Assembly: GCA_963836205.1 (NCBI GenBank)
Contig: CAWIIV010000012.1
Span: 64,001 to 128,000, forward strand
From: an uncultured Acidimicrobiia bacterium
GTDB taxonomy: Bacteria > Actinomycetota > Acidimicrobiia > Acidimicrobiales > AC-14
DNA: 64,000 nucleotides
Direction of reading: 5' to 3'
Shown: positions 11,401-60,633 of the stretch, one piece after another
Numbering within the stretch: position 1 is the stretch's first letter
Layout of the letters: each line of letters opens with the position of its first letter
The notes under the pieces: generated by a model
The model's database searches: none
The model's input: the letters and a program-made list of their open reading frames with translations, nothing else
What the model was told of the DNA's origin: nothing
Made by a program: the position numbers and the translations under genes

Positions 11401-11403
11401 GTC

Positions 11404-12950: not shown

Positions 12951-12955
12951 GCCGC

Positions 12956-20064: not shown

Positions 20065-20133
20065 CTCCCCGCAAGACCCTCGCAAGGAAGGACGCCCCCG
20101 GCGGTCGGTCCCCGCCGTGATGCGTCGAGCCGG

Positions 20134-20258: not shown

Positions 20259-20338
20259 TCGGTGGGCGGGAGTTGTTGACGACCCGAACGGGGCGCTGTG
20301 GGCCGGTGACCATGGCTGTCGCCGAAGCTTCGCCGAGA

Positions 20339-20593
20339 TCAGGGGTAGAGGTGGCGGAGCTCGCCCGGCTTCACCCGAGCCCGCTCGATGTACGCCTCGA
20401 CCTCCGATCGTCGGAGCCGGATCACTCGTCGATGCCTGATCCGGTGCGCCTCCGCCGGCAGCTCGTAGCGGTCAATCATGTTGAGGATGGTGCGCACCTG
20501 GACGCCGAGCATCCTCGCCGCCATGGGAGTGGTGATCCAGCCGTCGTCGTTGGCGGGCGCCGAGCCCGACTCAGGCATTCTCGACTCAGGCAT
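20339..20593 (-). CDS. Excisionase-like HTH protein
   Basis: WITTPMAARMLGVQVRTILNMIDRYELPA...RVIRLRRSEVEAYIE. Confidence 0.8.
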   Translation of the reverse strand: MPESRMPESGSAPANDDGWITTPMAARMLGVQVRTILNMIDRYELPAEAHRIRHRRVIRLRRSEVEAYIERARVKPGELRHLYP

Positions 20594-20869
20594 CCTCGAG
20601 TCCTTCCGCCAAGGCGATCAGCCGCGATCGAATCGCAGTCCGCCGTGCCGTCGCCTCGTCCTGGACTCGATCAGATCCACCATGAGGTCCAGAAAGGCGG
20701 TGGCGAGCTGTGCGGCCTGGCTGTCGGGTTCGTCGACCACCGCAAAATGTTATGGTCGTCTGGCCTTTGCGTGCAGCTCGTGGCCGCCCTTTTATCACTT
20801 TGCCGGGCGGGCGGCGACTAGCCTGCGGGTCATGCTCCGAGCTAATCAGCGACGCTACGTCATCGTGGA

Positions 20870-21622: not shown

Positions 21623-21697
21623 CCAGGTAGTGGCCTATCAGGTCAAATAGCAAGGCTATGGTGACTACGCCAAGTGGAACAAGGAGTCCCATGTACA

Positions 21698-24645: not shown

Positions 24646-24808
24646 GGGGCTTGCCTCCGGCGTTGTTGGGTGACGATGTTGTGGACGATGGCGAACGGGC
24701 ACTCCTCCGCCCAGCGCAACAGGTCCTCCAGTCGCGACCGCGACCGCTGCGGGTCGGCCTCCGGCGCAGGTGCGGGCTCATCGGCTGGCCCGGGCCCGGT
24801 CCGATCGG

Positions 24809-26254: not shown

Positions 26255-27631
26255 CAGCGCCGCCCCCCGGGGATGGCGGCGGGCTGGCCGGAGTCGGAGA
26301 CGGCGCCGTCTGGGCGGTGGCCTCGGTGGCCTGGCTGGCGGCCCGCGCGCCGGCGCCCGCGACCGCCATGGGCACGGTGGCCGCCGCCGCCGCCGCTCCG
26401 CCCGCGCCGGCACCGGACGCTGCCGCCGCTCCGCCGCCGCCTCCCGCCGCGCCACCCGCCATGGCCGAGATCCCGCCGCCCCCGCCGGCGTCGGCCATCG
26501 GGGCGCCGCCCGCCCCCGTCGGCGCCGCCCCTCCACCACCGCCGCTCCCGTTGCCACCGAGCAGCGCCTGGCCCCAGTACAGCGTCGACATCGTGGAGGA
26601 TCCCGCCTGCAGCGGACGTCGGGTCAGTCCCTCGGCCACGGCCAGGGTGCCGAGAGGGATGATGCTGAGCAGCACGTAGGGGGTGAACACGGCCACGGCC
26701 AGGATCCCGGCGCCGAGGATGAGGGCGGCCGGGTTGTCGCCGCCCTCGGCCACTGCGCTTGCGCCCACCGCCACCACCGCGGTGATCACGAACTTGGCCA
26801 GGATGATGGCCAGCAGCCCCTCGGCCAGCTTGCGCAGCCAGTGCGCAGTGGACTCCCACACCATCCCGGCGAAGCCCACCGGCAGGAACAGGGTGCCCAC
26901 CAGCACCGCCGCCTGGCGGACCACCAGTTCGATCCACAGCAGCAGGGCGCAGACGGCGATGACCAGGGCCACGATGAACAGGGCGAAGCCGACGAGCCCG
27001 CCGTTGCCGGTCAGCACCCCCGCCTCGAGCAGGTGGACGATGCCGGTGGCGAACTTCTCGCCGCTGCCGCCGATGGTGCCGCCCGACGAACCCCGACAGG
27101 TGGTCGGTGATCTCGACGAGCAGGCTGATGACGTAGGTGGCGAGCACCATGCCCACCGCCGCCGCCGGCAGCTTGATGGTGACGATCTTGACCACCCCCG
27201 CGGCGTCGTGGCGCAGCAGCGACCACAGGGCGGCGAGCAGGACGAGGGGCAGCAGGAAGGCCCCTCCCACCTGCAGCATGAGTTGGTAATTGGGCTCGAA
27301 CCAGCTGGCGTTGACGTCGGGCCTGGTCGAGCTGTCGATCGACTGCCCGACGAAGCCGACCACGCTCTTGGCCCCGGCCACCACCCACTCCGTGAGCTGG
27401 CCGAGCACGCCGCCGGCCACCCCCTCGACGCCGTCGGCCAGCAGGTTCGGCACCGCGGTGGCGACGGAGCACACCTGGTGGACGATGGGCGTCTCGGGAC
27501 AGGTCAGCAGCGGACCGTCGGGGTCGGTCTGCGCCTGGGCCGGCGCGGGCCACCACGACCGCGGCGGCCAACAGGATCAGGAGGAGCCCGATGGCTGCGG
27601 CGCGACAGCGCCGGTGCTCAGGCCGGGCCAT
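26247..27631 (-). CDS. VirB6/TrbL-like polytopic membrane protein (frameshifts near 27520 and 27090)
   Basis: LLWIELVVRQA, multiple TM helices, Gly/Ala-rich tail. Position within the T4SS operon. Confidence 0.75.
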
Positions 27632-28368
27632 AGCGATAGCTCGAGAATCCGGCCAGGGCCGCGATCGAGCTCCTCCGTGCCGGCCACCGGGCCCGACGTC
27701 GTCGCCGGCGTGGGACCGTCCGCCGAGCTCAGCGACCACAGGCGCCAGTCCCCGTCCACCCACTCGAGCTCCAGTGCCGTCGTCGTCCACGCCTCGCTGG
27801 GGCCACCGACGCCGGCGATCGACCACACGGCCGCCGCCCAAACACTGACCCGAGCCCGCTGCGGGGTGAAGGCGTCCACCCGGTAGGCGACGGGCAGGTT
27901 GCGCAGCACGGCCCGGGGTGCGCCCGACGACGACGCCGCGGTGCGGATGCGTTCCAGCAGTGCCGGATTGCCCACCACCGACGCCACCGTGCCCGCGCTG
28001 GCGTCCGGCACCAGCATTCGCCGCACCGCCATGTCGCGGGCCACCGGGTCCATCAGCAGCAGTCCCTCCGATGCCACCGTCAGATAGGCGGTGGCCGCCG
28101 CCGCCGCGCCCTGTTCGCTGTGGCCATAGCCGACGGGCACGCCCGCCTCGACCGATCGGGGGCCAGCATCGTCGGTCGCGCCGGGAGGAGCACCCACCGG
28201 GGTCGAGGAGGTCTGCCCCGGTCTGAGCTGGAGGGCGACGAGCACGCCGCCGAGGAAGGACACCAGAGCGACCACCGCTAGCCGCCTCCAGTCCCGGCCC
28301 GAACCCGATTGCGGCCGGCCGGCCCGTGCCGGCGCCGGGCGGGGACGGGCGAGCGACGGTGACCTCAC
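27577..28368 (-). CDS. Conjugation-associated bitopic protein (VirB8/TcpC-like)
   Basis: TM helix, GVPVGYGHSEQGAAAAA, LEWVDGDWRL, typical of actinobacterial ICE proteins. Confidence 0.65.
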   Translation of the reverse strand: MRSPSLARPRPAPARAGRPQSGSGRDWRRLAVVALVSFLGGVLVALQLRPGQTSSTPVGAPPGATDDAGPRSVEAGVPVGYGHSEQGAAAAATAYLTVASEGLLLMDPVARDMAVRRMLVPDASAGTVASVVGNPALLERIRTAASSSGAPRAVLRNLPVAYRVDAFTPQRARVSVWAAAVWSIAGVGGPSEAWTTTALELEWVDGDWRLWSLSSADGPTPATTSGPVAGTEELDRGPGRILELSLWPGLSTGAVAPQPSGSS

Positions 28369-28787
28369 TGGACCTGGCCCCCGAGGCCGACGGCGAATTT
28401 GACCAGACCGGCGGCGGCGGCGACCACCCCGGCGACAAGCGCGGCCCGGGCGACGCCTTCCTTGCCGTCCTGCACCTTGGCCATGTTGTGCTGCTGGGAG
28501 CCCCAACCCCACCGGCCGCCGTGGAAGGCCATCGCCCCCACGCAGCCGATGAGGATCATGCCCGCGCCCCAGTTCACGAGCTGCTGGAGCTGGGGACCGC
28601 CCGGTCCCTGGCCGGCGTCGGGGGAGTACTGGGCCCATGCCGCCGAGGCGTCGAGCACCAGGGAGCTCAGCCCCAGCCCGACGGCGCCGGCGGCCCGTCG
28701 CAGCCGAGCCGTCAACCGGCCGATCAAACCAGCGAATCGCCCGCCCCGGCTGCCGCCGTGGCCAGTCTCATCTACGAACCCGAACAC
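28365..28787 (-). CDS. VirB2/TrbC-like pilin
   Basis: Leader, PGGPQLQQLVNW, two hydrophobic helices. First gene of the T4SS operon. Confidence 0.6.
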   Translation of the reverse strand: MFGFVDETGHGGSRGGRFAGLIGRLTARLRRAAGAVGLGLSSLVLDASAAWAQYSPDAGQGPGGPQLQQLVNWGAGMILIGCVGAMAFHGGRWGWGSQQHNMAKVQDGKEGVARAALVAGVVAAAAGLVKFAVGLGGQVQ

Positions 28788-28799
28788 CTGTCCTCCCCT

Positions 28800-28930
28800 C
28801 CTGGGGCAGCAGCCCCAGCGTGTTGTCCACTAGCGGCGCCGCTGAACATCAGTTACGCTAAACAACCATAACAAACCGTAACTTTCTGTCAATTCTGCTG
28901 AAAAGCGCTCAGCGTGCGCTTTCAAGCGGT
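28800..28930. promoter_or_regulatory. Divergent AT-rich promoter region with inverted repeats
   Basis: CTGGGGC/GCCCCAG, AGCGGCGCCGCT palindrome, GTTACG..CGTAAC, TGAAAAGCGC..GCGCTTTCA, and DnaA-box-like TTGTCCACT (28823-28831). Confidence 0.5.
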
Positions 28931-28968
28931 GCGGCGCGAGCCGACGCCGGGCATCTGGGAGGGCCAAC

Positions 28969-30144
28969 CTGAAGCGCCTCGCCGTCGCCGGGGGCGCCAT
29001 CGCCCTGACCCTGCCGCTGGCCATGGCCTTCCTCGCCCTGGCCGCAGCCCAGCAGGCCGACGCCACCTGCAGCGGCTCCATCCCCGCGTCGGCCCAGCTC
29101 GACCCCGCCGCCCGCGAGGCCATCAACGCCCTCAAGCCCATGTACGAGCAGGTCGGACGGGACACGGGTCTCGCCTGGTCGGCGCTGGCCGCCGTCGACT
29201 ATCGGGAGTCCGGCAACGATCCCGACCGCTCCGCCCTCTCCGGTGAGCCCATCGGCGCCGCCAACCCCGACAACCCCGGCGTCACCACCACCACCAAGGC
29301 CGACAGCCTGCGACTGGCGGCCGACCACCTCAAGGCCATGGCCTCCTCCGTCTACGGGATCGCCCTCACCGCCGCCAGCCCGGGCCAGGACCTGCAGCTC
29401 GGCTTCCTGGCCTACAACCGGGGCTCCATCTACCGCGACGCGGGCGTCGGGCCCGAGCGCAGTCCCTACGTGATGAACCAGTCGCCCGGCTACGCCGACA
29501 TGGCCTGGCCCGAGATCCCGGGCGAGCCCCTGGCCGGGCGCACCGAGTACGGCCGCCTCGGTGCGTGGACGGTCTTCCTGCGCCTCGGTGGCCCCGGCGG
29601 CAGCTGCGCCGGGCTCAGCAACGTCGACGTGGTGAGGGTGGCCCAGCAGGAGCTGGCCGCAGGTATCGCCGAGGACAACCCCGGCAGCGACTGCGACTGC
29701 GGCGCCCCGATGAAGTACCAGGGCAGCACCGGCCCCGAGGACTGGTGCGCCGACTTCGTGTCGTGGGTGTTCCTTACCGCCGGCCACCCCTTCGACGGCG
29801 GCGTCGATGGCGTGCCCACCATCGGCAGGGGCTGGCGCCTGCCCGGCGTAGCCCAGCTGCGGGCCTGGATGATCGGCCACGGAACCTATGAGGAGCGGGC
29901 CGGCTACGGCCTGGCCGACGCCGCTCCGGGCGACGTCGTGATCTTCGGCGGGGGGACGGGCAGCCATACCGGCATCGTCGAGCGCGTCTCGGGCCTCGAG
30001 ACGCCCGACCCCGCCGACGACTTCCTGCATACGATCGAGGGCAACAGCGGCGACCGCGTCAGTCGACGGGACTACTCGGCAGCCGACAGCTACGTGTCCG
30101 GGTGGGGCGCCGGCCCCGGCGCCGCGGCGGCGGTCGCGGTATGA
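28969..30144 (+). CDS. Peptidoglycan hydrolase (lysozyme-like + CHAP), VirB1 role
   Basis: LAAVDYRES, WCADFVSWV, HTGIV, IEGN. In-frame CTG at 28969 after GGAGG; otherwise ATG at 29023. Confidence 0.85.
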   Translation: MKRLAVAGGAIALTLPLAMAFLALAAAQQADATCSGSIPASAQLDPAAREAINALKPMYEQVGRDTGLAWSALAAVDYRESGNDPDRSALSGEPIGAANPDNPGVTTTTKADSLRLAADHLKAMASSVYGIALTAASPGQDLQLGFLAYNRGSIYRDAGVGPERSPYVMNQSPGYADMAWPEIPGEPLAGRTEYGRLGAWTVFLRLGGPGGSCAGLSNVDVVRVAQQELAAGIAEDNPGSDCDCGAPMKYQGSTGPEDWCADFVSWVFLTAGHPFDGGVDGVPTIGRGWRLPGVAQLRAWMIGHGTYEERAGYGLADAAPGDVVIFGGGTGSHTGIVERVSGLETPDPADDFLHTIEGNSGDRVSRRDYSAADSYVSGWGAGPGAAAAVAV

Positions 30145-30614
30145 GGCGAGGTCTGCTCCGCTCCGCGCTGGCCGCCAGCGTCTTGGCCGTGCTGGCCGCG
30201 TGCGCCCCCCCGTCGAGCACCGGACCCCGCCCGGCGAGCCCGGCAACGGCGGGGGCAGAGCCCGAACCGACTGTCTCCCGAGCGCCGCCCCGGAGTAGCT
30301 CCGACACCATCTCGCCGGCCGATGTCGACCGCCAGCTCGCGGGCGTGGACGAGCTGGAGCAGACCGAACCCCTCACCCGCCGGCTGCCCCACGACAGCGA
30401 CCACTTCCGCGTCGACTACCGCCTCGACGACGAAGGCCGACTGGTGGTGGAGATCGAGCTGCGGGCCGTGCTCAACCGACCCGAGCAGCTGGCGGCCTAC
30501 GAGGACCAACTCCGGGCCTACCGGGGCGAGGCCCTCGCCTGGCTGCGCTCGGTCGGCGCCGATCCGGCCTCGCTTGACCTCCTCTACCGGCCCCCCGAGG
30601 CCGCCAGTTTGTGA
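30141..30614 (+). CDS. Lipoprotein
   Basis: MRRGLLRSALAASVLAVLAAC lipobox. ATGA overlap with the CHAP gene. Confidence 0.7.
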   Translation: MRRGLLRSALAASVLAVLAACAPPSSTGPRPASPATAGAEPEPTVSRAPPRSSSDTISPADVDRQLAGVDELEQTEPLTRRLPHDSDHFRVDYRLDDEGRLVVEIELRAVLNRPEQLAAYEDQLRAYRGEALAWLRSVGADPASLDLLYRPPEAASL

Positions 30615-30657
30615 TGCCCGGTTCGATCGCTGACCTCCCGAACAGAAGGAGCGCCCC

Positions 30658-30861
30658 GTGACCACCACCGACCGCAGCGCCGCCGCTGCGCCTGCGCCTG
30701 TCGCTTTCTCCCGACCCCGACACCTGCCCGACGTCGGCGCCGTCGCCGTCGTGCACCCGAAGCTGCCGCTCGCCACCGCCCGTGCCCTGCTCGACGCCGG
30801 CGTCGCTCGGCTGGGGAGTGCCGGCGATGTCGAGATCTGGGTCCGCTACCCGGGCCGGTAG
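30658..30861 (+). CDS. Small hypothetical protein
   Basis: RBS AAGGAG and GTG start. Confidence 0.4.
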   Translation: MTTTDRSAAAAPAPVAFSRPRHLPDVGAVAVVHPKLPLATARALLDAGVARLGSAGDVEIWVRYPGR

Positions 30862-30952
30862 GGCAGGCCGGTGGACCAGTCCCGGGCCCGAGCGCCCCCG
30901 TGCATGAGCGCCCCAACCAGACACAACAGCGACCCAAAAGGAGGGCAACAGC

Positions 30953-31303
30953 ATGAACAGCATCAACCTCGTCGGCCGCCTCACCCGAGACCCCGAGCTC
31001 GACGAGACCAAGGGCGGCACGCCCGTGTGCCGCATGCGCCTGGCCGTGTCCCGGCGCAGGAAGGACGGCAAGGACCAGGGCGCCGTCTTCGTCAACGTGG
31101 TGGCCTACGGCGGCCAGGCGACGGCCTCGGCCGACTACCTGACCAAGGGCCGGCAGGTCGCCGTCAGCGGCCGCCTCGAGTTCCGGGAGTGGTCGGACGA
31201 AGGCGGCGATGCCCACTCGCTCCACGAGGTGGTGGCCGACCACGTCGGTTTCCTCGGCAGCCCGCCGGCCAATGGCGACGCGGATGCAGGGGAGCCGGCG
31301 TGA
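30953..31303 (+). CDS. ssb: Single-stranded DNA-binding protein
   Basis: MNSINLVGRLTRDPEL, YLTKGRQVAVSGRL. Confidence 0.92.
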   Translation: MNSINLVGRLTRDPELDETKGGTPVCRMRLAVSRRRKDGKDQGAVFVNVVAYGGQATASADYLTKGRQVAVSGRLEFREWSDEGGDAHSLHEVVADHVGFLGSPPANGDADAGEPA

Positions 31304-31875
31304 GCGCCGGCAGACGGTCGGGTCGGCCGTCGACGACCCTCAAGCGCGACGACTGGGGGCCCTGGCGGCCCCCGGTCGAAGACCGGCTCCTGGCCTGCGA
31401 GGACTTCCTGGGCCGGCTCCGACGCAGCTTCGACGGAGAGATCGCCCCCGACCGTCACTATTTCGATGAGAAGGCCCACGGGCTGCGCGACGCGGCCCAG
31501 GCTCTCGTGGAGCGGGTCGAGGATGTCGAGTGGTGGCTGGGGACCTGCCCCGAGGATGTCGTGCTGACGGATCGGGACCCGGACGGCCCGACGTCCGTCA
31601 CCGACTGTGGTCGGGCCGTGGGCCATGTCGGGACCCACCAGGACGCGGACCTCTGCGCTGAGCGCCGGGTCCTGGTCGAGGTTCGCAGCGTGGTCCACGC
31701 CTTGCGGCAGGCGACCGACGGGCTCGCCTGGGGCCTGCTCACGGTTCGGGCCGAGGCCGGTGTCACCGACGCCGAGACGCTGGCTGCTGGACTGCGGCCC
31801 CTACAGGGCAGGCTCGACAAGGCGGTGTCAGCCGTTGCTGCCCTCGCCCCCCCGAGCGACGGGGAGGATCGGTGA
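31300..31875 (+). CDS. Hypothetical protein
   Basis: GTGA overlaps at both ends; contains C-x..CGRAVGHVGTH (possible Zn site). Confidence 0.55.
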   Translation: MSAGRRSGRPSTTLKRDDWGPWRPPVEDRLLACEDFLGRLRRSFDGEIAPDRHYFDEKAHGLRDAAQALVERVEDVEWWLGTCPEDVVLTDRDPDGPTSVTDCGRAVGHVGTHQDADLCAERRVLVEVRSVVHALRQATDGLAWGLLTVRAEAGVTDAETLAAGLRPLQGRLDKAVSAVAALAPPSDGEDR

Positions 31876-32864
31876 CCGCCCGCAGCCCAGCGACCGAGCA
31901 CGGCCACCAGCCCGGGGTCGGCGGCGGCCCGCCTCACGAGGCCCTGAGCGCGGCGCTGGACTACGCGGCCAAAGGCTGGCGGGTGTTGCCGGTGGCGGGC
32001 ATTGCCGACGCTGGCTGCGCCTGCGGCCGGGACTGCGACAGCCCGGCCAAGCACCCCCTCACCCACCGTGGTGTGCATGACGCCAGCACCGACCCCGTGC
32101 GCATCCGCCGCTGGTGGCACCGCTGGCCGGCGGCCAACATCGGCGTCGCCACCGGGGCTGCATCCGGCTTCGCGGTGGTCGACGTCGATCCTGACTCCGG
32201 TGGCCGCCGCTCGCTGGCGAAGGTTCGGGCGGCGGGCAGGGAGCTGCCCCCGACGCGCATGGCCTTCAGCGGCGGCGGCGGCTTCCACCTGTTTTACCGG
32301 CTGGACCAGGCGACGACTGTCGGCAACACCGTCGGGCGCCTCCCCGGCATCGCCGAACCCCTGCCGGGGATCGACCTGCGGGGCGAGGGCGGCTATGTGG
32401 TCGTGGCGCCCAGCCGCCACGCCAGCGGGCGCCACTACCGCTGGTCGCGTCGAGCCGTCGACATGGCCGCCCTGCCGCCGTGGCTGTGGCAGCCGCCCCC
32501 GCCCGCCGCCGTCCAGGTCCTGGCCCGGAGCCGGCTGAATTGGACCAGCGCCTACGGTGCGGGGGCCATGGCCGACGAGGTCGACGCCGTGTGCCGCCTC
32601 GTCGTGGGGCAACGCAACGACGGGCTGAACCGAGCCGCCTTTCGTCTCGGCCAACTGGTGGGCGGAGGCGAGCTCGCCGCCGATCTGGTGCACGACGAGC
32701 TTCTGGCCGCCGGGCTGTCGACAGGGCTCGGCGAGCGGGAGGCGGTCCGCACGATCCACAGCGGACTCCGGGCCGGCGAGCGGTCACCACGGCGGGCTCC
32801 CGACGCAGCGGCTGACGCACCTTCTCCTCTGCGATCTGCGTCGATTGGAGGGTCCAATGGCTGA
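31872..32864 (+). CDS. Bifunctional DNA primase/polymerase (Prim-Pol)
   Basis: KHP, ANIGVATG, VVDVD, SGGGGFHLFY, IDLRGEGGYVVVAPS, GQRNDGLNRAAF. Confidence 0.9.
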   Translation: MTARSPATEHGHQPGVGGGPPHEALSAALDYAAKGWRVLPVAGIADAGCACGRDCDSPAKHPLTHRGVHDASTDPVRIRRWWHRWPAANIGVATGAASGFAVVDVDPDSGGRRSLAKVRAAGRELPPTRMAFSGGGGFHLFYRLDQATTVGNTVGRLPGIAEPLPGIDLRGEGGYVVVAPSRHASGRHYRWSRRAVDMAALPPWLWQPPPPAAVQVLARSRLNWTSAYGAGAMADEVDAVCRLVVGQRNDGLNRAAFRLGQLVGGGELAADLVHDELLAAGLSTGLGEREAVRTIHSGLRAGERSPRRAPDAAADAPSPLRSASIGGSNG

Positions 32865-33171
32865 CCAACACGCGGGGCTCTGGCTCGACGTCGCCGGCGC
32901 CGCGGCCTACCTCGGTGTCAGCGAAGCCTTCGTCCGCCGAATCGTGCTCGAGCGTCGGGTCCGCTACTTCAAGGTCGGCAAGCTCCTCCGTTTCCGCCCT
33001 TCAGATCTCGACGCCTTCGTGGAAGTGGGCCGCTGTGACCCGGTCAGCCCGCGCTCCCACGCCCGGTCTCCTCAGCGGAGGGCTGGCGTCGGTACTACGA
33101 CACCGCGCCGAACCGCCGCGGACAAGCTCAGGACAGTTCCCGAGCAGCGAGGCACGTCCGCCGGGCCCTGA
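32857..33171 (+). CDS. Excisionase-like HTH protein
   Basis: LDVAGAAAYLGVSEAFVRRIV....YFKVGKLLRFRPSDLDAF. Confidence 0.85.
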   Translation: MADQHAGLWLDVAGAAAYLGVSEAFVRRIVLERRVRYFKVGKLLRFRPSDLDAFVEVGRCDPVSPRSHARSPQRRAGVGTTTPRRTAADKLRTVPEQRGTSAGP

Positions 33172-49198: not shown

Positions 49199-50128
49199 AT
49201 GACGAGGTATGTCGTCCGGCGAATGCTGCAGATGATGCTGGTCCTGTTCGGGGCCAGCATCGTCCTCTTCGTCTGCCTGTTCGTCGTCCCCGGCGACCCC
49301 ATCTCCACCCAGCAGGGCGAGGGTCGCCGGATCGACTCGTCCACCCGCCAGGTCCTGGAGCGTCGGTACCACCTCGACCAGCCGCTGCCGACGCAGTACG
49401 TGCACTACGTCGGCCGGCTGGTCCAGGGCGACATGGGCGAGTCGTACACCTACCGGCGGTCGGTGAACGAGATCCTGGGCCAGAAGCTGGGCAACACCGT
49501 CAAGCTGGGACTGGCCGCCATCGCCCTGGAGATCGCCATCGGGGTGGTGGCGGGGGTGATCGCGGCCGTCTTCCGGTATTCGTTCCTCGACGTCCTGGTG
49601 ACCCTCTCCACCACCCTCGCCATCGGGTTCCCCACGTTCGTGATCGGCCTCGCCCTGCAGCAGGGATTCGCCATCAAATGGGGCCTCCTCCCACTCCAGG
49701 GGGCCAACGGGGGGCTGCGGTCGCTCATCCTGCCCGCCCTCACACTGGCGTCGGTCGACGCCGCCCTGGTCGCTCGCCTCATGCGGGGCTCGATGCTCGA
49801 GGTGCTGCGGGCCGACTACATCCGGACGGCCATGGCCAAGGGGCTGTCGAAGCGGGTCGTGCTCCTCAAGCACGCCCTGCGCAACTCGATCATCCCCGTG
49901 CTGACCTACCTCGGGATCACCTTTGGCACCCTGCTCGGCGGGGCCGTCATCACCGAGACCATCTTCAACTGGGACGGCGTGGGGCTGGCCCTGGTGGGGG
50001 CCATCCAGACCCAGGACAACCCCATCGTGCTCGGCGTGGTCACCTACGGCGTGGGCGTGTTCGTCCTGGTGAACCTGCTCGTCGACCTGTCGTACGCGGT
50101 GCTCGACCCGCGGATTCGGTTGTCGTAG
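49199..50128 (+). CDS. Peptide ABC permease (OppB-like)
   Basis: VPGDP, DYIRTAMAKG, GAVITETIF. Confidence 0.92.
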   Translation: MTRYVVRRMLQMMLVLFGASIVLFVCLFVVPGDPISTQQGEGRRIDSSTRQVLERRYHLDQPLPTQYVHYVGRLVQGDMGESYTYRRSVNEILGQKLGNTVKLGLAAIALEIAIGVVAGVIAAVFRYSFLDVLVTLSTTLAIGFPTFVIGLALQQGFAIKWGLLPLQGANGGLRSLILPALTLASVDAALVARLMRGSMLEVLRADYIRTAMAKGLSKRVVLLKHALRNSIIPVLTYLGITFGTLLGGAVITETIFNWDGVGLALVGAIQTQDNPIVLGVVTYGVGVFVLVNLLVDLSYAVLDPRIRLS

Positions 50129-50131
50129 GCG

Positions 50132-51091
50132 ATGTCGAACACTGCTCTTCCGCCCACGGTCGGTCCCTCCGGCGTCGGGGAGGTCACCCTGGAGGCGGGC
50201 GCCGGCGGGTTCGGCGCGGCCGAGTCCCAGGCCACCGCCCTCGGCATCCGGGTCCAGACCCAGTTCGGCGACATCCGGCGGCGGTTCTTCCGCAACAAGC
50301 TGGCGGTGGTCGGACTGGGGATGGTGGCCGTCGTGTTCGCCGCCGCCGTGCTCGCCCCCCTGCTGGCGCCCTTCGACCCCAAGGCCCAGGACCTGGCCAA
50401 CACACTCGGCTCCCCGTCGTCGGCCCACTGGCTGGGCACGGACGAGCTCGGGCGCGACGTGCTGAGCCGGATCCTCTACGGCACCCGGATCGCGGTGGTC
50501 GTGGGCCTGGCCACCATCCTGCTGGCCCTGGTCATCGGGGTGGTTCTGGGGGCGCTGTCGGGCTACCTGGGCGGGGCGTGGGACGCCGTCATCATGCGCG
50601 TCGCCGACGTGTTCTTCGCCTTCCCCCTTCTCATCGGCGCCATCGTGATCGTGCTGGTGGTGGGCCGGGGCCTCACGCCGGTGGTCCTCGCCCTGGGGAT
50701 CTTCAGCTGGGCCACAGTCGCCCGCCTGCTGCGCAGCTCGATCCTGTCGGTGCGGGAGAGCGAGTACGTGGAAGCGGCCCGGTCGCTGGGCGCCAGCCGG
50801 TTCCGGATCGTCACCCGCCACGTCCTGCCCAACTCGATGGCGCCGGTGCTCGTCTTCGCCATGGTGAGCGTGGCCACCGCCATCGTGGCCGAGGCGTCCC
50901 TCAGCTACCTGGGCGTCGGTCTGCCCCCCGACGTCCCCGACTGGGGGAACATGATCTCGGCCGGGAAGGACTACTTCGGGTTCAAGGACTTCCTGTGGTT
51001 CTTCCCGAGCCTGGCGGTGGTGTTCACGGTTCTCGGGTTCGTGTTCGTGGGCGACGGGCTCCGAGACGCCCTCGATCCGCGGCTGCGGTGA
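50132..51091 (+). CDS. Peptide ABC permease (OppC-like)
   Basis: [32 protein letters not shown]. Confidence 0.92.
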
Positions 51092-52152
51092 GCCTCGATA
51101 CCGCCGCCGCCGCCGGCGGGGCCGGCGGGGCCGGTGCCGGCGAGCCGCTGCTGCAGGTGGACGACCTGCGGGTCCACTTCCACACCGACGGCGGCGTGGT
51201 CAAGGCGGTCGACGGCGTGAGCTGGTCGGTCGGCCGGGGCGAGACGCTGGGCATCGTGGGCGAGTCGGGGTCGGGCAAGTCGGTGTCGGCCCTGGCCGTC
51301 ATGGGCCTGGTGCCCGTCCCGCCCGGGAGGTTCGAGTCGGGGCGGATCGTGTTCGGCGGCCGCGACCTGCTGACCACGGGGGAGAAGGAGCTGCGGGCCA
51401 TCCGGGGCAAGGAGATCTCGATGATCTTCCAGGACCCGCTCACGTCGCTCAACCCCGTCTTCAAGATCGGCCACCAGATCGCGGAGGTCATCCAGGCCCA
51501 CGAGAAGGTGGGTCGGGTGGCGGCCCGGCGGCGGGCGGTGGAGCTGCTGGGCGAGGTCGGCATCCCCAACCCGGCCCAACGGGCCCAGGAGTACCCCCAC
51601 CAGTTCTCGGGCGGGATGCGCCAGCGGGCGCTGATCGCCATGGCTCTGGCCCTCGACCCGGCCGTGCTGCTGGCCGACGAGCCCACGACGGCCCTCGACG
51701 TCACCGTCCAGGCCCAGATCATGGACCTGCTCCTGCGTCTACAGGCGCAGCGGGGCACGGCGGTGGTGCTCATCACCCACGACCTGGGGCTGGTGGCCGG
51801 CCATGCCGACCGGGTGGTGGTGATGTACGCGGGCCGGGTGGCGGAGACGGCCGGCGTCGACGACCTCTACTACCGCCCCCGCCACGCCTACACCCTGGGC
51901 CTGTTGTCGAGCCTGGCCCGGCTCGACCGGCGTCGCTCCGAGCGGCTGCGGCCGATCGTGGGCCAGCCGCCGAGCCTCATCCGGGTGCCGCCGGGATGCG
52001 CGTTCCATCCCCGCTGCCCGTTCGCCACCGACGTCTGCCGCCAGGACCGGCCCGAGCTGTCGGCCCAGGCCGACGCCGGGGCCGGCCACTTCGCCGCCTG
52101 CCACCACGCCGACGAGGTGGCCCAGGCGCCGGCGGCGGTGGTGGCGACGTGA
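51088..52152 (+). CDS. Peptide ABC ATP-binding protein (OppD-like)
   Basis: [36 protein letters not shown]. Confidence 0.92.
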
Positions 52153-53267
52153 GTACCGCCGAGACGGCCGAGACGGTCGTGCCCGCGGCCGCGGCCGAGT
52201 CGGTGGCTGTGCCCGCGCCGGCCGGGGCCGGGGCCGGAAAGGGGGAGGCGGAGGCCACGGGCGGGCCGCTGCTGGAGGTCGTCGACCTGGTCAAGCACTT
52301 CCCCGTCCGGGCCGGGATCGTGTTCAAGCACTCCATCGGGTCGGTGAAGGCGGTCGACGGGGTCTCCTTCGCCATCCGCCGCGGGCAGACGTTCGCGGTG
52401 GTGGGCGAGAGCGGGTGCGGGAAGTCGACCACCGCCCGGGCGATCCTCCGCCTGCTCGAGCCGACCTCGGGGTCGGTGCGCTTCGACGGGGAGGATGTGA
52501 CGGGTGCCGGGCCCAGCCGGATGCGCCACCTGCGGCGGGAGATGCAGATGATCTTCCAGGACCCCTACGCCAGCCTGAATCCGAGGATGACCGTCCGCAC
52601 CATCCTGGGCGAGCCGTTCAAGATCCACGGCCTGCCCGAGGAGGGACGGGTCGACGAGCTGCTGTCGTTGGTGGGCCTCTCGCCCGAGCACGCCCGCCGC
52701 TACCCCCACGAGTTCTCCGGCGGCCAGCGCCAGCGGGTGGGCATCGCCCGGGCCCTCGCCCTCGATCCCAAGCTGGTGGTGTGCGACGAGCCGGTGTCCG
52801 CCCTCGACGTGTCCATCCGGGCCCAGGTCCTCAACCTGCTGGAGGACCTTCAGGACCAGCTCGGGTTGACGTACCTGTTCATCGCCCACGACCTGAGCGT
52901 CGTCCGCCACATCGCCGACGAGGTGGCGGTGATGTACCTGGGCGCCATCGTCGAGGTTGCCGGGCGGGACGAGCTGTTCGAGCAGGCCTCACACCCCTAC
53001 ACCCAGGCCCTCATCTCGTCGGTGCCGGTGCCCGACCCCATCCGGGAGCGCAGCCGCAAGCGGATCCTCGTCACCGGCGACCCGCCCAGCCCGGTCAACC
53101 CGCCGAGCGGGTGCCGGTTCCGGACCCGCTGTCCCAAGTTCGCCGACGAGCTGTCGGAGGGCGAGCGCCAACGGTGCGTCGACGAGCGCCCCGCCCTCGT
53201 GGTGCGGGACGGGAGCGCCGGCCATCCGTCGGCCTGCCACTACGCCGAGGCCCGCAAGCTGGTGTAG
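52149..53267 (+). CDS. Peptide ABC ATP-binding protein (OppF-like)
   Basis: [36 protein letters not shown]. Confidence 0.92.
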
Positions 53268-53329
53268 CGGACCGGAGCCGCCCTCCCGCGGCCGTGGCCG
53301 TCTACTGTGCGCCGGGACTCTACGGGAGG

Positions 53330-54666
53330 TCACGACCACGGCCAGCCGCCACATCGGTGTTTCCATCTCGGGGGGCGGGCACCGGGCCAGCCTGTTCGGC
53401 CTGGGCGCACTCATCTACCTTGTCGACGCGGGGAAGGGACCCGAGATCTCCTGCGTCTCGTCGGTGTCGGGCGGCTCCATCACCAACGGCTGGGTGGGAC
53501 TCAAGACCGACCTTTACGTGGCCGCGTCGGGCGACTTCCGCTCCGACATCGCCCCGCTGGCCAGGGCGGTCTCCACCGGGGGCACCCTGTGGCGGGCCCC
53601 GCTGACCTGGGCCTATCTGATCCTGATGGGCGCGATCCTGGCGTTGGCAACGGTGCTGTGCTTCCCCCTCGAGGGGGTGGCGGCACTGGCGGTGTGGCTG
53701 GTGGCGTTGGTGGTGGTCGGGTGGCTGGCCCGGCAGCGGGCGCTGGTGGCGGCCCACGCCTTCGACCAGGTTCTGTTCCACGGCGCCGAGCTGGGCCGGC
53801 TGAACCCCAACACCGACCACGTCATCTGCGCCTGCGATCTCCAGTCGGCGGAGGACGTGTACTTCTCCGGACGCTTTGTCCACTCCTACCGGCTGGGCTG
53901 GGGCGTGCCGGGCGACCTGCGCCTGTCGCGGGCCGTCCAGGCCTCGGCCTGCCTGCCGGGTGCCTTCGCCCCGGTGGTGCTGCCGATCGAGCGCCACCGC
54001 TTCTCGCTGGCGGGGGCGGGCGACGAGCCGCTCACCCGCATGCTCCTCACCGACGGCGGCGTCTACGACAACATGGCCACCGAGTGGCCGCTCAACCTGC
54101 GCAGCCGGGCCCGCTCGGGCGCGGCACCCGAGCCGCCGCCCCACGAGGTCGACGAGGTGGTGGTGGTGAACGGCTCGGCCGGTGGCGACGTGACCACTCG
54201 CAGGTCGGTCACCGTGCCCGTGCTGGGCGAGATCACGTCGCTGCTGGCGGTGAAGGACGTCCTGTACGACCAGACCACGGCCGTGCGCCGGCGCCTGCTC
54301 GACGTCCGCTACCGGGCCACCCGGGCCGGGATTCGCGACGACAACGTCCGTCTCGCGGGGGGGACGGTGCAGATCGACCGCTCGCCGTACGAACTGCCCC
54401 GCACCTTCCTCTCCGGGGGCGACGACCTCGCCCGGCGGGCGAAGGCGGCCCTCGAGCGGCTCACCCCTGGCGAGGAGGCGGCGTGGGCCGCCGACGCCGA
54501 TGCCAACCGGCGGGTCAAGACAGCCCTTTCCAAGATCCCGGCCGACCGGGCCGCCCGCATCCTGCGCCAGGCCTACGTGCTGACCATGGTGAACATGCAC
54601 GTGCTCCGGGATTACCCGCTGCTGCCCATCCCGGCCGTCGCCGAGTTCGAGAAACTGGTGGTGTGA
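53330..54666 (+). CDS. Patatin/cPLA2-like phospholipase with two TM helices (start uncertain)
   Basis: SGGGHRASLF oxyanion motif, SSVSGGS nucleophile, ASACLPGAF, DGGVYDN. Confidence 0.85.
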
Positions 54667-57616
54667 GCCCGGCCGACGCCGACAGGGATGTCGCCCGGGT
54701 GCTGGCGGGGGTGCTGGCGGCCGGAGGCTTGGGGGTCGACGACGTGTCCGGGGCCGTGGCTGGCGGCCTGCTGGAGGAGGAGATCGGAGTGTCGTCGCGC
54801 TGGATGCCGGGTGAGCTCGGCGGCGACGACCCGACCGGCGTCTACGTGTTCGAGGCCATGCGCCCGGTCGCCCGGTGGACGACCCCGTCCGACGAGCTGG
54901 TGGCCGAGGTGGCCGTGAGGATCGGCGCGGCGAGTGGCCGGCGGTTGGTCAGCCCGGCCCGGGGAGGATGGGGCCGTCCCGTCCTGCGGCTGGCGGTCGG
55001 TGGCCTCGACGACGCGGCCGCGCTTCGTCGCATGGGTTCGGTGGCCGGCCTCCGCCTCGTCCCCCATGTGATGCGGACGGCGCACCGGGTCTCGTGGCGG
55101 TGGCCGCTGCGGGTCGGTGTCCTTGCCGGGCCGAAGGCGACGGAGCACGTCAGCCAGATCACCGGGCACCACGACAACCTCTTCTCCGTAACGATCGTGG
55201 AGCCGTCGTCGGCACCGGTCGAGCTCGAGATCCTCGTCCTTCCCGACGCCGCCGCCGAGGTGCCGGACGGGGTGTGGGCGGCCTGCGTGCTCGTGTCGGG
55301 GGGCGGGGGCGGCGAGGTCGTCCAGCAGGTCGAACGGTTGGACCCGGCCGCGATCGTGATCGCCCAGTCGAGCGACCTGGCCTGGTTCCGCTACCTGATC
55401 GCGGAGCTGTCCCACGACGAGCCCATCGACGTGGCCGTCACCGTGGGCTGCCCGGACGACGTCGTGGTCGTCGCCGACCAGTCCCTCCTCTCCTTGACCA
55501 TGCCGCGGTTCTGGGCCCTGCGATGGATCGAGGAGCTCGACCGACTCGACCCGTCCACCATGGTCGGCGGCACGCCCGTCGGGACCATCGTCGAGGAGAT
55601 GCGGACCCTCGTCGCCGGCGGCAGCTTCCGCTTCGAGAGCGACTCGTCCACCGAATTGTCCGACAAGGTCAGACGGGTGGACCCGGACGGGGTCGGCGAG
55701 CTGACGATCGTTCGCCACCGAGTCGCCATGGCCGAGGCCCTGCCGCCGGACGAGGGGTCCAGCGGGGACGAAGCGACGGCCAACGGCGGCGGTCCCCCGG
55801 CCGGCGAAGGCGACGCCATGGCCGACGGCGGTGATGCGTGGGTCGGCGAGGGCGGCGGTGCCCCACCGGGCGGCGGCGCCCCACCGGGAGGGGGCGCCCC
55901 ACCGGGAGGCGGTGCGCCGGGCGGCGGCGCCCCACCGGGAGAGCGGCGCGCCACCGGGAGGCGGTGCGCCACCGGGAGGCGGCAGGCCGGGCGAGGAGGT
56001 CGATCGGGGCGTCCTCCCGGGCAGCGCCGAAGGCGGCGGCGCCGGCCCGGTGGAGGCCCCGGCACCCGACACCCGCCGGGTGCAGACCCAGTTCGTCGAT
56101 CCCGGCACGAAGAAACCGGTGCCCGACCGGTTCGTGGCCGGTGCCGTCCACCACCTGCGGGTCCGGATCGCAGCCAGGTTGGCGGAGGAGGCGGTGGGGG
56201 CCGACGCACCGTTCGTCAACCCCACGCCGGGACGGGAGGCCGAGCTGCTCGTGGAGGTCATCGCCGGCGACACCCACGCCCGGCGCCAGCTCACCCTCCC
56301 CGCCATCGGCGACTCCAAGTGGACCAGGGTCGTCCCCTTCGTAGTCCCCGCCGACGCGTCCGAGTTCGAGGTGATCGTCCAGATCTGGTTCGCAGGACGG
56401 GTGGTGCAGAGCCTCGTCCTGTCCGGACCGGTCGGCGGGGCCGGGGGCCTCCACCTGAGCGTCGACGCCTCCACCCCCGCGGCCGATGTCCACGACATGA
56501 GCCCGGCCGGCGCCTCCTTCACGATCGTGCCCGGACTCGGGGGCGAGCCCCGGCTCTTCGACCTGGCCCAGGCCAACCTGATCACCTCGGCCGGCATAGC
56601 CCGGGCCGTGGCCGAGGTCCGGTCGGCGCTGCTGGCGGCCTTCCTCGACCCCCCGACCTCGCTGGAAGGCGGCGGCGGGCGTGCTCATCGAGCTGGCCCT
56701 GAGCGGCAGGGATCTCTACCTCCAGCTGCAGGCGGCCACCTACGACGACGCCGAGTGGATCCACGTGTCGTCGTTCGGCGGTGCCGACCTGCCGGTGGAG
56801 CTCGTCTACACCCACCTCGCCCCCGACGATGCCACCGTCCCGGTGTGCCGGCCGGCTCTCGCGGGGGCGTTGGAGTGCGCCGACGACTGTCCCGACAAGG
56901 GCAACTCCGACTGCGTTTGCCCGTTCGGTTTCTGGGCCACCAGCAAGGTGATCGAACGGCGGGCCCACACCGACGGACGCACGAGCCCCACGGCCGGCGC
57001 CCAGCGGTCGGTCCCGATCCTGACCCTGGGTGCGGCCGGGGTGTCGGTGAAGGCCGACGAGGTCGACCCGACGTCGAGCTCTCGCATCCTGACTGCGGTG
57101 GAGTCGGCGGTGGCGGCCGGCGGGTTCCACCGGGTCACGACGTGGGCCGACCTGAAACCGCTGGCCAAGCTCCCGGCCCAGTTGCTCGTCCTCATCACCC
57201 ACACCGTCCCCGGCAACCCGCCGCAGCTCCAGCTCGGAACCGACATCCGTGGCCTTCGCTTCATCGACACGAACTACGTGAACCTGGGGACGCCCCGCGT
57301 CCCGGGGCCGGTGGTGCTGGCCATCGGCTGTGACACCGAGGCCCTGGAGGCGGGTTTCTCCGACTACCCGGGACGGCTGATCGGGGCGGGGGCGGAGGTG
57401 GTGGTGACCGCCATCTCGCCGGTTCCGGGCAAGACGGTGGCCGACTTCGTGGTCCGGTTCTTCGAGGCCCTGCCCGGGTACCTGGCCGCGCCGGGCATCC
57501 ACCGCTTCGGTGAGGTGCTCACCGCCATCCGTCAGCGGACGATCGCCCAGGGCGACGTGCTCGGCCTCGCCCTGGTCGCCGCAGGTGACGCCGACGTCGC
57601 CCTGGTGGGGACCTAA
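54663..57616 (+). CDS. Large multidomain protein with C-terminal CHAT (caspase-clan) protease domain (frameshifts near 55942 and 56670)
   Basis: Three consecutive ORF pieces. C-terminus has LPVELVY, CPFGFW, LVLITH (His), VVLAIGCDT (Cys), GAEVVVT...FF..L. Confidence 0.7.
55851..55983 (+). repeat. About 7 copies of an 18-bp coding tandem repeat (GGGAPP)
   Basis: GGNGGNGGNGCNCCACCG units, one shortened and one with an indel. Confidence 0.85.
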
Positions 57617-57622
57617 CGCCCG

Positions 57623-58696
57623 GTGCTCACCGTCGAACTGCTGCCGGCCGGCTACGGCGACGCCGTCCTCGTCACCTACGGCGACCCGGCCACGCCCCAC
57701 CGCCTGCTCGTCGATGGCGGCCAGTCGGGCAGCTTCCCCGCCGTGGCCGCCCGCCTGCGCTCCTTCAACGGGCCCATCGACCTGCTGGTGGTCACCCACG
57801 TCGACACCGATCACGTCGGAGGTGCGGTCCGGCTCCTCGACTCGGGCGCGCTGGCCGCCCGCTTCGGCGGCATCTGGTTCAACGGCTACGTCCACCTCGA
57901 CCGCTTCTCGGGCCTGCTCGGGCCCATCCACGGCGAGCGCCTGACGGACCGGATCGTCAAGCTGGGCCTGCCGTGGAACGAGGGCTGGCCCGATCCGATG
58001 CAGGACGGGATCGGCGGGCCGGTCGTGGTGCGCGACGTCCCCCCGGTGATGGAATTGCCGGGCGGGGCCACCGCCACCGTCCTGTCCCCGACACCCCAGA
58101 AGCTGGCCAGGCTGCTGCGAGTGTGGAAGGAGGTGGTGGAGGCGGCCGGCCTGCGCCCCCGGGTGAAGGCCACCGAGGAGGCGGAGCCGGCGGTGGTGGC
58201 GCCCGGCCTCCTCGGCGGGGTGAGCCTGGCCGACCTGGCCCGACTCCCCACCGGCGCCGACACCGCCGAGGCCAACGGGTCGAGCATCGCCTTCATCTTC
58301 GAGTTCGAGGGGGTCCGGGTCCTCCTCGGGGCCGACGCCCACCCCGACGCCCTCCTCGCCGGGCTCGCCCACCTGGCCGCCGCCGACGGGAAGGTCCGCC
58401 TCGACGCCTGCAAGCTGCCCCACCACGGGAGCAAGGGCAACGTCACCAAGGCCCTGGTCGAGGCCCTCGACTGCCCCCTGTGGTTGGTGTCCACCAACGG
58501 TCGCCGCTTCCACCACCCCGACGACGTCGCCCTGGCCCGGGTGATCTCCGGCGGGCCCGACCGGCGCCTGGTGTGGAACTACCGCAGTGACCGTTTCCAG
58601 GCCTTCACCGCCGACTACCCGCCGGCCACGTCGGGCTACTCGGTCGAGGTCCCCGACGACGGGGTCGAGGGGATCACCGTCCGTCTGGCCGACTGA
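57623..58696 (+). CDS. ComEC/Avs1a-like metallo-beta-lactamase-fold hydrolase
   Basis: [46 protein letters not shown]. Confidence 0.88.
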
Positions 58697-58806
58697 ACCG
58701 CGCTTTTCCCGGACCGGTCGAATCGGGACGGGCGATGTCGTAGAATGGTTGGCGGTCCGCCCCGTGTTCGCGGCCAGGCGTACCACCATTCGAAAGGCTT
58801 CTTCTC

Positions 58807-60633
<1,827 letters not shown>

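Follow-up and report, generated by a model that had tools for sequence, protein, structure and literature searches.

A CHAT-type protease paired with a metallo-beta-lactamase-fold hydrolase and an accessory patatin: a probable canu-like defence operon, frameshifted as sequenced, in an uncultured Acidimicrobiia bacterium

A stretch of 64,000 nucleotides from an uncultured Acidimicrobiia bacterium (contig CAWIIV010000012.1 of assembly GCA_963836205.1, positions 64,001 to 128,000; hereafter the window) carries three co-directional genes that encode a patatin-like phospholipase, a large protease ending in a CHAT domain, and a hydrolase with the metallo-beta-lactamase (MBL) fold. Comparison with related loci shows that the CHAT protease and the MBL are a conserved two-gene core, and that the trio found in the window is a lineage-specific elaboration of this core. 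Measured against the main texts of two papers from 2025, this caspase-nuclease core is a CHAT-type version of a kind of system published in that year. We consider it likely that the locus as a whole is a canu-like abortive-defence operon built on a CHAT-type protease, and that the copy in the window has been inactivated by frameshifts, unless the extra bases are sequencing errors. The original prediction, made from the sequence alone, did not recognise the trio as a named system; pairs of a caspase-like protease and an MBL do already appear in the 2025 descriptions, both as "canu" and as MBL clade 2 with caspase-like proteases.

Only in 2025 did protease-gated effectors come to be seen as a main logic of bacterial immunity, and the experiments reported in the main texts concern trypsin-type modules and one small C14-caspase system. 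Evans et al. sorted protease-associated MBLs into three clades, found with trypsin-like, caspase-like and subtilisin-like proteases, and showed that VcMBL is a zymogen which, when cut at two sites by the Avs2 protease, becomes a Zn2+-dependent dsDNA nuclease (10.1101/2025.11.14.688446). Tuck et al. (Science 2025; PMC12799240) described caspase-nuclease "canu" loci, the prototype being KaeCanABC of Klebsiella aerogenes, where the nuclease is encoded downstream of the caspase. There, CanAB converts CanC into a nuclease, CanC carries dual disordered gating insertions with conserved glycines, and either G104K or G189K in CanC abolishes defence against T4 (PMC12799240). Canu loci are called "variable in organization" and include TPR and Ig-like domains (PMC12799240), and CHAT-type loci may already be among those in the figures or supplement of that paper. 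Between them, the two studies show experimentally that MBLs homologous to the one in the window are zymogen DNases activated by a partner protease, and that activation of these homologous MBL nucleases protects the population from phage (10.1101/2025.11.14.688446; PMC12799240). A literature search on the trio or on a CHAT-MBL pair returned only these two protease-MBL papers, whose main texts contain neither CHAT, patatin nor phospholipase; "lipase" occurs once in the main text of Evans et al., in an HHpred remark on LcHydrolase (10.1101/2025.11.14.688446).

The CHAT protease-MBL pair

A scan of one genome per species with a CHAT-domain profile of 20 sequences gave 95 relatives, and the best 80 of these were analysed. 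In 78 of the 80 loci an MBL homologue lies directly downstream of the protease gene on the same strand, with -14 to +60 nt between protease stop and MBL start (median 5 nt) and with 24 pairs overlapping. One of the two exceptions, on an Anaeromyxobacteraceae metagenome-assembled genome (MAG) contig (L029, 2698-6477), is a single 1259-aa open reading frame (ORF) in which an MBL domain (Lactamase_B at aa 275-331, Pfam) is followed in the same frame by a C-terminal CHAT domain, a natural fusion of the two partners; in the other (L059) the MBL gene lies 2 kb away on the opposite strand. At least nine phyla are represented among the loci, including Actinomycetota, Pseudomonadota, Acidobacteriota, Chloroflexota, Bacteroidota, Verrucomicrobiota, Gemmatimonadota and Myxococcota. 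On a quick tree of the MBLs, the gammaproteobacterial loci L006, L008 and L009 nest within an Acidimicrobiia/actinobacterial clade, sister to the group of the window, on a 100* branch, a placement which implies, as far as a quick tree goes, that the module has been transferred between phyla.

The MBL of the window was described in the original prediction as an Avs1a-like hydrolase with THxDxDH, HHGS and STNG motifs, and this description holds. Pfam Lactamase_B matches it at E 1.3e-8, the PADLOC models LmuA, Avs1a and RTasMBL match at 8.6e-56, 2.2e-34 and 2.7e-33, and it has THVDTDH, HHGS and STNG as conserved motifs. The three PADLOC models describe MBL partners in AVAST, Lamassu and DRT systems that carry a protease. 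Across 51 CHAT-linked MBLs, H59, D61, D63, H64, D238, H267, H268 and H298 are invariant, as is L197-G198, while L99-G100 is at least 90% conserved. The gene and its main sites, all on the plus strand, are as follows.

57623-58696, + strand: MBL-fold hydrolase of 357 aa, a putative pro-nuclease of the Avs1a/HamM/CanC family
57797-57814, + strand: MBL HxDxDH motif, within THVDTDH
57917-57922, + strand: L99-G100, a putative protease site in a low-confidence loop
58211-58216, + strand: L197-G198, a putative protease site in a low-confidence loop
58421-58426, + strand: MBL HH motif, within HHGS

An AlphaFold2 model of this MBL (mean predicted local distance difference test, pLDDT, 89; predicted template modelling score, pTM, 0.90) has just two segments below pLDDT 50, residues 95-100 and 178-195, which are loops containing or bordering the Leu-Gly pairs, and its closest fold in the PDB is the MBL (nuclease) domain of ComEC (9ic4, E 1.4e-11). 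Aligned by eye, SGLLG100P...ERL and PGLLG198G of the window correspond to LEGLG104A...ERL and LESMG189A as printed for KaeCanC in the supplement (PMC12799240). On the strength of sequence and model, the window MBL with its two putative gating loops matches the dual gating insertions of CanC.

Searched against plasmids, the MBL found 60 records at 30-37% identity, the best of them Caballeronia pNK84 (37% identity over 353 residues, E 4e-60), on which the MBL gene stands last in a row, after those of a Peptidase_C14 caspase and a hypothetical protein, beside IS5 in a CanABC-like layout. A tblastn search with the MBL against the phage collection returned nothing, and neither did one with the CHAT piece against the plasmid collection. 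On Mycobacterium sp. JS623 plasmid pMYCSM01 (L081, 100445-113533), an MBL of the family lies behind two large unannotated proteins of 836 aa (with TPR matches) and 798 aa, among genes for a caspase family protein, WD40 and TIR-domain proteins, a stretch with the look of a defence island; the plasmid is mobilizable.

The protease gene, at 54663-57616, is spread over three reading frames, and its three pieces are colinear with the 945-aa intact homologue P0002, with no further lesion. Piece 1 holds an N-terminal alpha/beta domain (motifs WRWPLRVG and ELSHDxPxDVA) and the start of a disordered Gly/Pro linker, piece 2 the rest of that linker with an Ig-like, all-beta domain and a helical lead-in, and piece 3 a Cys cluster followed by the CHAT catalytic domain.

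54663-55941, + strand: protease piece 1, frame 0, 58% identical to P0002 residues 1 to ~410
55850-55995, + strand: 18-bp tandem repeat, ~7.6 copies (TRF), encoding GGGAPP units in the linker
55943-56665, + strand: protease piece 2, frame 1, 67% identical to P0002 ~400-634
56666-57616, + strand: protease piece 3, frame 2, 89% identical to P0002 632-945
56846-56920, + strand: Cys cluster of piece 3 (C56, C66, C70, C80), invariant among aligned relatives
57200-57202, + strand: catalytic His174 of piece 3, invariant
57329-57331, + strand: catalytic Cys217 of piece 3, invariant

The long Gly/Pro linker and the C-terminal His/Cys CHAT domain of the original prediction are both present. H174 and C217 are invariant in family alignments of 53 and of 20 sequences. 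The C-terminal piece of the window itself has no match to Pfam CHAT (PF12770) at E<=0.01; 9 of the 53 aligned relatives do match, the best at 2.6e-9. A phmmer search with the C-terminal 311 residues reached 1245 cluster representatives (clusters at 50% identity) at E<=1e-3, 865 of them with E<=1e-10, most of the 1245 being proteins of ~900 aa with the matched region at the C-terminus. In an AlphaFold2 model of P0002 built from 77 sequences (pLDDT 87, pTM 0.71), a confident N-terminal alpha/beta domain (1-353) is followed by a disordered linker (356-414, pLDDT<50), an all-beta domain (~424-595), helices and a C-terminal alpha/beta domain. Foldseek placed chains of the TPR-CHAT protein Csx29 (Craspase) first among PDB matches to this model (8eex_B, E 4e-7), followed by separase, gingipain, SAVED-CHAT (8tl0) and caspases, with 19 matches at E<=1e-3. 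Because relatives match the Pfam family and because P0002, which is 89% identical in the CHAT domain, has this predicted fold, the assignment of the C-terminal domain as a CHAT/caspase fold with a His/Cys dyad is supported by both sequence and model.

Other searches with the protease were negative. Pfam, NCBIfam and PADLOC gave nothing for the three pieces except a BovA match at E 0.042, which was taken as noise; the N-terminal piece had no recognisable relative in Pfam, PADLOC or NCBIfam and no usable match in the ESM Atlas, and the family profile had no match among PDB sequences. The PADLOC check proposed in the original prediction was thus productive for the MBL and yielded nothing for the patatin or, beyond the BovA noise, for the protease pieces.

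Some of the 80 loci have defence-gene neighbours, namely SoFic, NsnC and extra CHAT or caspase genes. Extra CHAT-domain proteins lie beside the pair downstream in L049 and upstream in L057, L059 and L062, and a Peptidase_C14 caspase gene lies beside it in L037 (12253-13257, minus strand); such neighbours hint at protease cascades or at paralogous systems. No gasdermin family was found among the neighbour ORFs scanned (57 by Pfam, 66 by PADLOC).

Lipase genes beside the pair

The first gene of the trio was predicted to encode a patatin with a transmembrane (TM) segment and intact SVSGG and DGG motifs, and all three features were borne out. Pfam Patatin (PF01734) matches at E 1.1e-7 (32.7 bits, cut-off 27.7). 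Across 26 related patatins S11-G14, R16, S44-S47 and D239-G241 are invariant (SGGGHRA, SVSGG and DGG), the first Gly of the GxSxG nucleophile motif being replaced by Ser. A two-helix hydrophobic hairpin is inserted in the catalytic domain at about residues 87-133 (~53596-53736; KD19 up to 2.46) and, by hydropathy, is restricted to an actinobacterial subclade. Neither hydropathy nor the 26-sequence alignment revealed a cleavage motif or gating insertion in these patatins, and the patatin has no PADLOC model match.

53299-53308, + strand: conserved 10-mer CGTCTACTGT, from a DNA alignment of the window with L001, L002, L004 and L005
53324-53329, + strand: Shine-Dalgarno-like GGGAGG, from the same five-genome alignment
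53338-53340, + strand: ACG, invariant in the five-genome alignment
53338-54666, + strand: patatin-like phospholipase, 442 aa if the ACG is the start (Pfam PF01734)
53371-53385, + strand: patatin GGGxR, the oxyanion motif
53467-53469, + strand: patatin nucleophile Ser44 in SVSGG
54052-54060, + strand: patatin DGG

The start of this gene was originally placed at 53330, where there is no ATG, GTG or TTG, and no such codon exists in the patatin frame anywhere from the oppF stop (53267) to the GGGxR motif. In-frame ATG, GTG and TTG are likewise missing in the four nearest relatives (L001, L002, L004 and L005). The invariant ACG follows the GGGAGG at a spacing of 8 nt in the window and 8-9 nt across the five genomes, and from this alignment ACG at 53338 is probably a non-canonical patatin start. 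The patatins of the more distant relatives L007, L010 and L014 use ATG or GTG starts. The upstream 10-mer CGTCTACTGT is not enriched within the window.

Co-occurrence of all three genes in other genomes had been put forward as a check on the trio. The survey answered it in part: the protease-MBL pair recurs almost throughout, but a lipase gene is present in only 37 of the 80 loci. It is missing from 32 loci with both flanks at least 1.5 kb long, and in 11 the flanks are too short to judge. The lipases are patatins in 26 loci, Tle1-like proteins (PF09994) in 10 and a phospholipase D (PLD; PLDc_2) in one (L057); the calls were made by profile, and Pfam confirmed 7 of 7 patatin and 5 of 5 Tle1-like ORFs scanned. 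In most cases the lipase gene adjoins the pair in the same orientation, on the upstream side of the protease or on the downstream side of the MBL. For the patatin, 16 loci have the gene immediately upstream of the protease and five have it after the MBL, and the Tle1-like gene follows the MBL in six, precedes the protease in two and is convergent in two. Mapped onto the quick MBL tree, the lipase labels cluster and yet need 18 changes, with modest support. The lipase is an accessory component, swappable between three families.

A second trio adjoins the CHAT-MBL pair in L008 (1897-6256) and L037 (13464-17974) and is also headed by a patatin, which is followed by a 584-647-aa protein with a weak thermolysin-type match (HEXXH region, E ~0.008) and an MBL of the same superfamily. 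L006 (2088-6408) probably carries the same kind of second patatin trio. The second trio of L008 and L037 may be a metalloprotease-based analogue of the trio in the window.

Gene order and reading frames in the window

The layout given in the original prediction is correct in its gene order, in its junctions and in the shared orientation of the trio, which is on the plus strand. The trio lies between oppF and typA; the patatin stop (TGA, 54664-54666) overlaps the protease GTG at 54663 in a GTGA overlap (54663-54666), and 6 bp (57617-57622) separate the protease stop from the MBL start. The GTG at 54663 aligns with Met1 of P0002. The position between opp and typA is kept in the nearest relatives of the window, which are Acidimicrobiia MAGs. 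A promoter and terminator scan of 53000-59000 found none, and an inverted-repeat scan found three weak pairs, all within coding sequence.

49199-53267: oppBCDF, upstream of the trio, with oppF ending at 53267
58807-60633: typA, downstream of the trio

What did not survive is the single protein of ~980 aa: there is no open frame of that length, and the protease is instead read in three pieces in frames 0, 1 and 2. With a G+C content of ~72%, coding frames in the window can be read from third-position GC (GC3), and the GC3 frame preference switches at the same two places as the protease frame breaks, which correspond to two single-base +1 frameshifts at ~55942 and ~56666. The first is one extra base at ~55942 (ggaGAGcgg) inside the GGGAPP repeat, which shifts frame 0 to frame 1 and is not a homopolymer-length change. 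The second is one extra base within 56665-56680 (a GAAG/GGC run, most simply the A at 56666/56667), which shifts frame 1 to frame 2. The GGGAPP tandem repeat is absent from P0002, the closest intact homologue, and in the relatives L001, L004 and L007 the protease is a single long ORF. The product predicted from 54663 would comprise the N-terminal domain and then out-of-frame residues up to a stop at 56702, with loss of the CHAT domain. Since the two +1 frameshifts separate the putative sensor part from the CHAT domain, the protease gene is, as sequenced, a pseudogene; the genes on either side of it, for patatin and MBL, are intact. The GGGAPP repeat was also considered as a site of programmed frameshifting or phase variation, and this was rejected: both shifts are +1 and do not compensate each other, the relatives are single ORFs without the repeat expansion, and the extra base is not a whole repeat unit.

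Two accounts of the extra bases compete: mutation has disabled the system and left two latent, unlicensed effectors behind, or the bases are errors in GC-rich repeats and the organism itself has an intact, functional operon. Several observations are consistent with error: the GGGAPP repeat and the GGC run, where the two shifts fall, are repetitive and very rich in G+C, the three pieces are otherwise free of lesions with a coding-type GC3 of 0.92-0.93, the catalytic residues of the protease are intact, and the related MAG loci L002 and L012 also appear split, so that such errors do occur in this type of data. A GC3-based pass over the whole window, on the other hand, indicated no further frameshifts, and Pfam assigned 29 adjacent same-strand segments to different families or to none, never to consecutive parts of one family. 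Two lesions within one 3-kb gene and none seen elsewhere in 64 kb points to real decay, and the first extra base is not of the homopolymer type. On balance we hold sequencing or assembly error to be a rather unlikely explanation.

The suspicious same-strand runs elsewhere in the window resolve into individual genes of a Tad-pilus operon and of an element resembling an integrative and conjugative element (ICE). The former, a Tad/Flp pilus-type operon on the minus strand at ~11400-17400 (TadE/G-like protein, T2SSF, T2SSE ATPase), has tightly packed genes in changing frames that resemble frameshifts, yet they are separate genes. Third-position GC is weaker over the first ~10 kb of the window than over the remainder. 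Genes typical of ICEs lie at ~18000-33000, including the following.

21719-23341, - strand: coupling protein of a type IV secretion system, ICE-like element
23395-24639, - strand: TraG-like P-loop ATPase, ICE-like element
30938-31255, + strand: single-stranded DNA-binding protein, ICE-like element
31896-32759, + strand: primase-polymerase (Prim-Pol), ICE-like element

Proposed mechanism, alternatives and known systems

The original prediction held that the large protein senses a signal and proteolytically activates a membrane lipase, a nuclease or both. For the nuclease this holds up, on the evidence of the pairing in 78 of 80 loci, the caspase fold and the homologous zymogen DNases; the trio as an obligate unit does not. 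In the mechanism that we propose, the 890-985-aa protein would sense an infection or stress signal through its N-terminal alpha/beta and Ig-like domains and probably oligomerise. Its CHAT His/Cys domain would then cleave the co-translated MBL zymogen within two exposed loops, with the cuts falling at or beside L99-G100 and L197-G198, as inferred from the conservation of these sites, the model and the published mechanism of CanC, VcMBL and HamM. By analogy with the homologues for which this has been shown, the cuts would free a Zn-dependent dsDNA nuclease, and the cell would be killed or arrested. The membrane-inserted patatin encoded upstream, like the Tle1-like or PLD lipase elsewhere, may serve as an accessory second effector, a link suggested by gene neighbourhood.

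Several points weigh against this interpretation. Cleavage, nuclease activity, phage defence and the trigger are each a matter of inference throughout the CHAT-linked family. The CHAT family profile is unrelated to the C14 caspase of the CanABC-like locus of pNK84 (hhalign probability 0.9%), and nothing in the window locus resembles the CanB-like protein of that locus. The match of L99-G100 and L197-G198 to G104 and G189 of KaeCanC was made by eye from the supplement and not by a tool, and the second Leu-Gly site falls in a gap of the BLAST alignment with the pNK84 MBL. The NCBIfam Avs1a model matches the MBL at E 1.9e-50 but at 171.8 bits, below an equivalog cut-off of 420. As for context, the housekeeping neighbours (opp, typA) are common to the nearest relatives and set the locus apart from a typical defence island, a PADLOC match at E<=1e-6 was obtained for only 13 of 66 scanned neighbour ORFs, several of them generic enzymes, and the tblastn searches of the plasmid and phage collections found no plasmid with the CHAT domain and no phage with the MBL. 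The lipase-free loci also count against it, as do the short 336-aa proteobacterial forms of the patatin, which by their Pfam spans have no obvious gating insertion.

That one CHAT protease licenses two executioners, the MBL pro-nuclease acting on DNA and an exchangeable phospholipase acting on the membrane, is a tentative proposal. The functional unit may instead be the CHAT-MBL pair only, with the patatin, Tle1-like or PLD gene an independent neighbour or a separate defence gene. We regard this as a possibility of some weight, although not the probable one: the 32 full-flank loci without a lipase fit it, as do the patatins of L006, L008 and L037, which belong to a different adjacent trio, those of L009 and L039, which lie on the other strand, and the lack of a recognised cleavage motif or gating insertion in the patatin. 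It accounts less well for the GTGA overlap in the window, for same-strand adjacency in ~30 loci with three unrelated lipase families at the same two positions, which is a pattern of effector swapping, for the 18 label changes that the clustered lipases need on the quick tree, or for the recurrence of the patatin-protease-MBL order with a different putative protease. It is improbable, in our judgement, that the module is not antiviral at all, being a stress, developmental or housekeeping proteolytic switch, or that the MBL is no nuclease. The stable opp-typA chromosomal position in the nearest clade would suit such a role, as would the absence of the family from PADLOC and from the plasmid and phage collections and the protease-effector modules fused to DnaK-like chaperones that Evans et al. 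note, a hint of functions other than phage defence (10.1101/2025.11.14.688446). The MBL is nevertheless homologous to proven defence pro-nucleases and keeps all metal motifs and both loops, the tree implies cross-phylum transfer, and some loci have defence neighbours (SoFic, NsnC, extra CHAT or caspase genes, and TIR and WD40 genes on the Mycobacterium plasmid).

Membership of AVAST type 1, CBASS or a gasdermin system, to which the original prediction had drawn analogies, is refuted by gene content and is very improbable; the resemblance goes no further than an MBL that matches Avs1a models and a patatin of a CBASS effector type (PMC13069673). By ORF list, Pfam, PADLOC and NCBIfam, neither the operon nor the adjacent genes encode a STAND NTPase, a trypsin-like protease, a cyclase or a gasdermin. 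The Avs1a score is less than half of the family cut-off and none of the protease pieces has a STAND or trypsin domain; the patatin, without a PADLOC match, neighbours oppF and the CHAT protease rather than a CD-NTase cyclase; and the protease is flanked only by the patatin and the MBL. Membership of Lamassu was likewise rejected, the partner genes being absent.

If the canu-like reading is right, the family provides a second, structurally different caspase-like activator of the same pro-nuclease, a case for studying protease-substrate co-evolution (Leu-Gly here, Ile or Gly elsewhere), and an uncharacterised sensor domain. Current defence finders would probably miss the family, because PADLOC and NCBIfam hold no model of the protease and its N-terminal and middle parts are unmatched by Pfam, NCBIfam and PADLOC. 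Should the lipase arm also prove true, bacteria would have a two-armed, caspase-style death programme, and the recurrence of the patatin-protease-MBL arrangement with an unrelated putative metalloprotease (L008, L037) would be a convergent lipase, protease and pro-nuclease design; loci with and without a lipase form a natural series for testing whether one protease can drive two effectors. The copy in the window mainly documents the decay of the system, with its latent toxins remaining intact. As far as the main texts of the two 2025 papers go, we found no prior description, for canu or MBL-protease modules, of the lipase arm, the patatin-protease-MBL recurrence, the N-terminal sensor domain or the Leu-Gly sites.

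Among known systems, canu is the closest. As in canu loci (PMC12799240), the gene for an MBL pro-nuclease lies directly downstream of that for a clan-CD protease, and the putative nuclease, ~356 aa long, shares the motifs THxDxDHxGG, PHH.S and ST.G..HPD and two disordered loops with conserved Gly. On the evidence of sequence and model the window locus accordingly has the features of canu and MBL clade 2: a family MBL with intact metal motifs, a predicted nuclease directly downstream and two predicted disordered Gly loops. It does not have those of CanABC in the strict sense, a C14/MALT1-like caspase with a C-terminal Ig fold and a CanB. The protease of the CHAT family is a single chain of 890-985 aa with alpha/beta and Ig-like domains before the protease domain, whereas that of canu is a C14/MALT1-like caspase of 390 aa whose Ig fold is C-terminal, accompanied by CanB (PMC12799240), and a lipase gene is often attached to the CHAT-MBL loci.

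The modules of a trypsin-like protease and an MBL in AVAST (Avs1, 2, 4), Hachiman (HamMAB), Lamassu and DRT share the MBL zymogen family and its two-site cleavage to a Zn2+ dsDNase (10.1101/2025.11.14.688446; PMC12799240). In those modules the MBL is encoded upstream of a serine protease that is joined to a known sensor (STAND, HamA, LmuA) and the P1 residue is Ile, whereas in the window the MBL gene lies downstream of a cysteine protease and the candidate sites are Leu-Gly. LcCaspase/LcHydrolase of Lysobacter capsici, where the death effector is a lipase-like hydrolase licensed by a caspase-like protease, is a precedent for the proposed lipase arm (10.1101/2025.11.14.688446). LcHydrolase is an alpha/beta-hydrolase of ~33 kDa cut at Arg-Gly (10.1101/2025.11.14.688446), and the lipases of CHAT-MBL loci are patatins, Tle1-like proteins (PF09994, 355-389 aa) or PLD, which accompany the MBL rather than replace it and are likened to LcHydrolase by role only. 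CBASS also has a patatin-like phospholipase, CapV, as a defence effector that attacks membranes (PMC13069673), but here there is no cyclase, no nucleotide-sensing domain and no PADLOC match to the patatin, and the actinobacterial subclade has the TM hairpin. Finally, the Csx29 TPR-CHAT protease of Craspase and SAVED-CHAT, both of type III CRISPR, are the best structural matches to the C-terminal domain of the protease and have the same His/Cys dyad, whereas the family described here has no CRISPR context, neither a TPR nor a SAVED domain, and other putative substrates.

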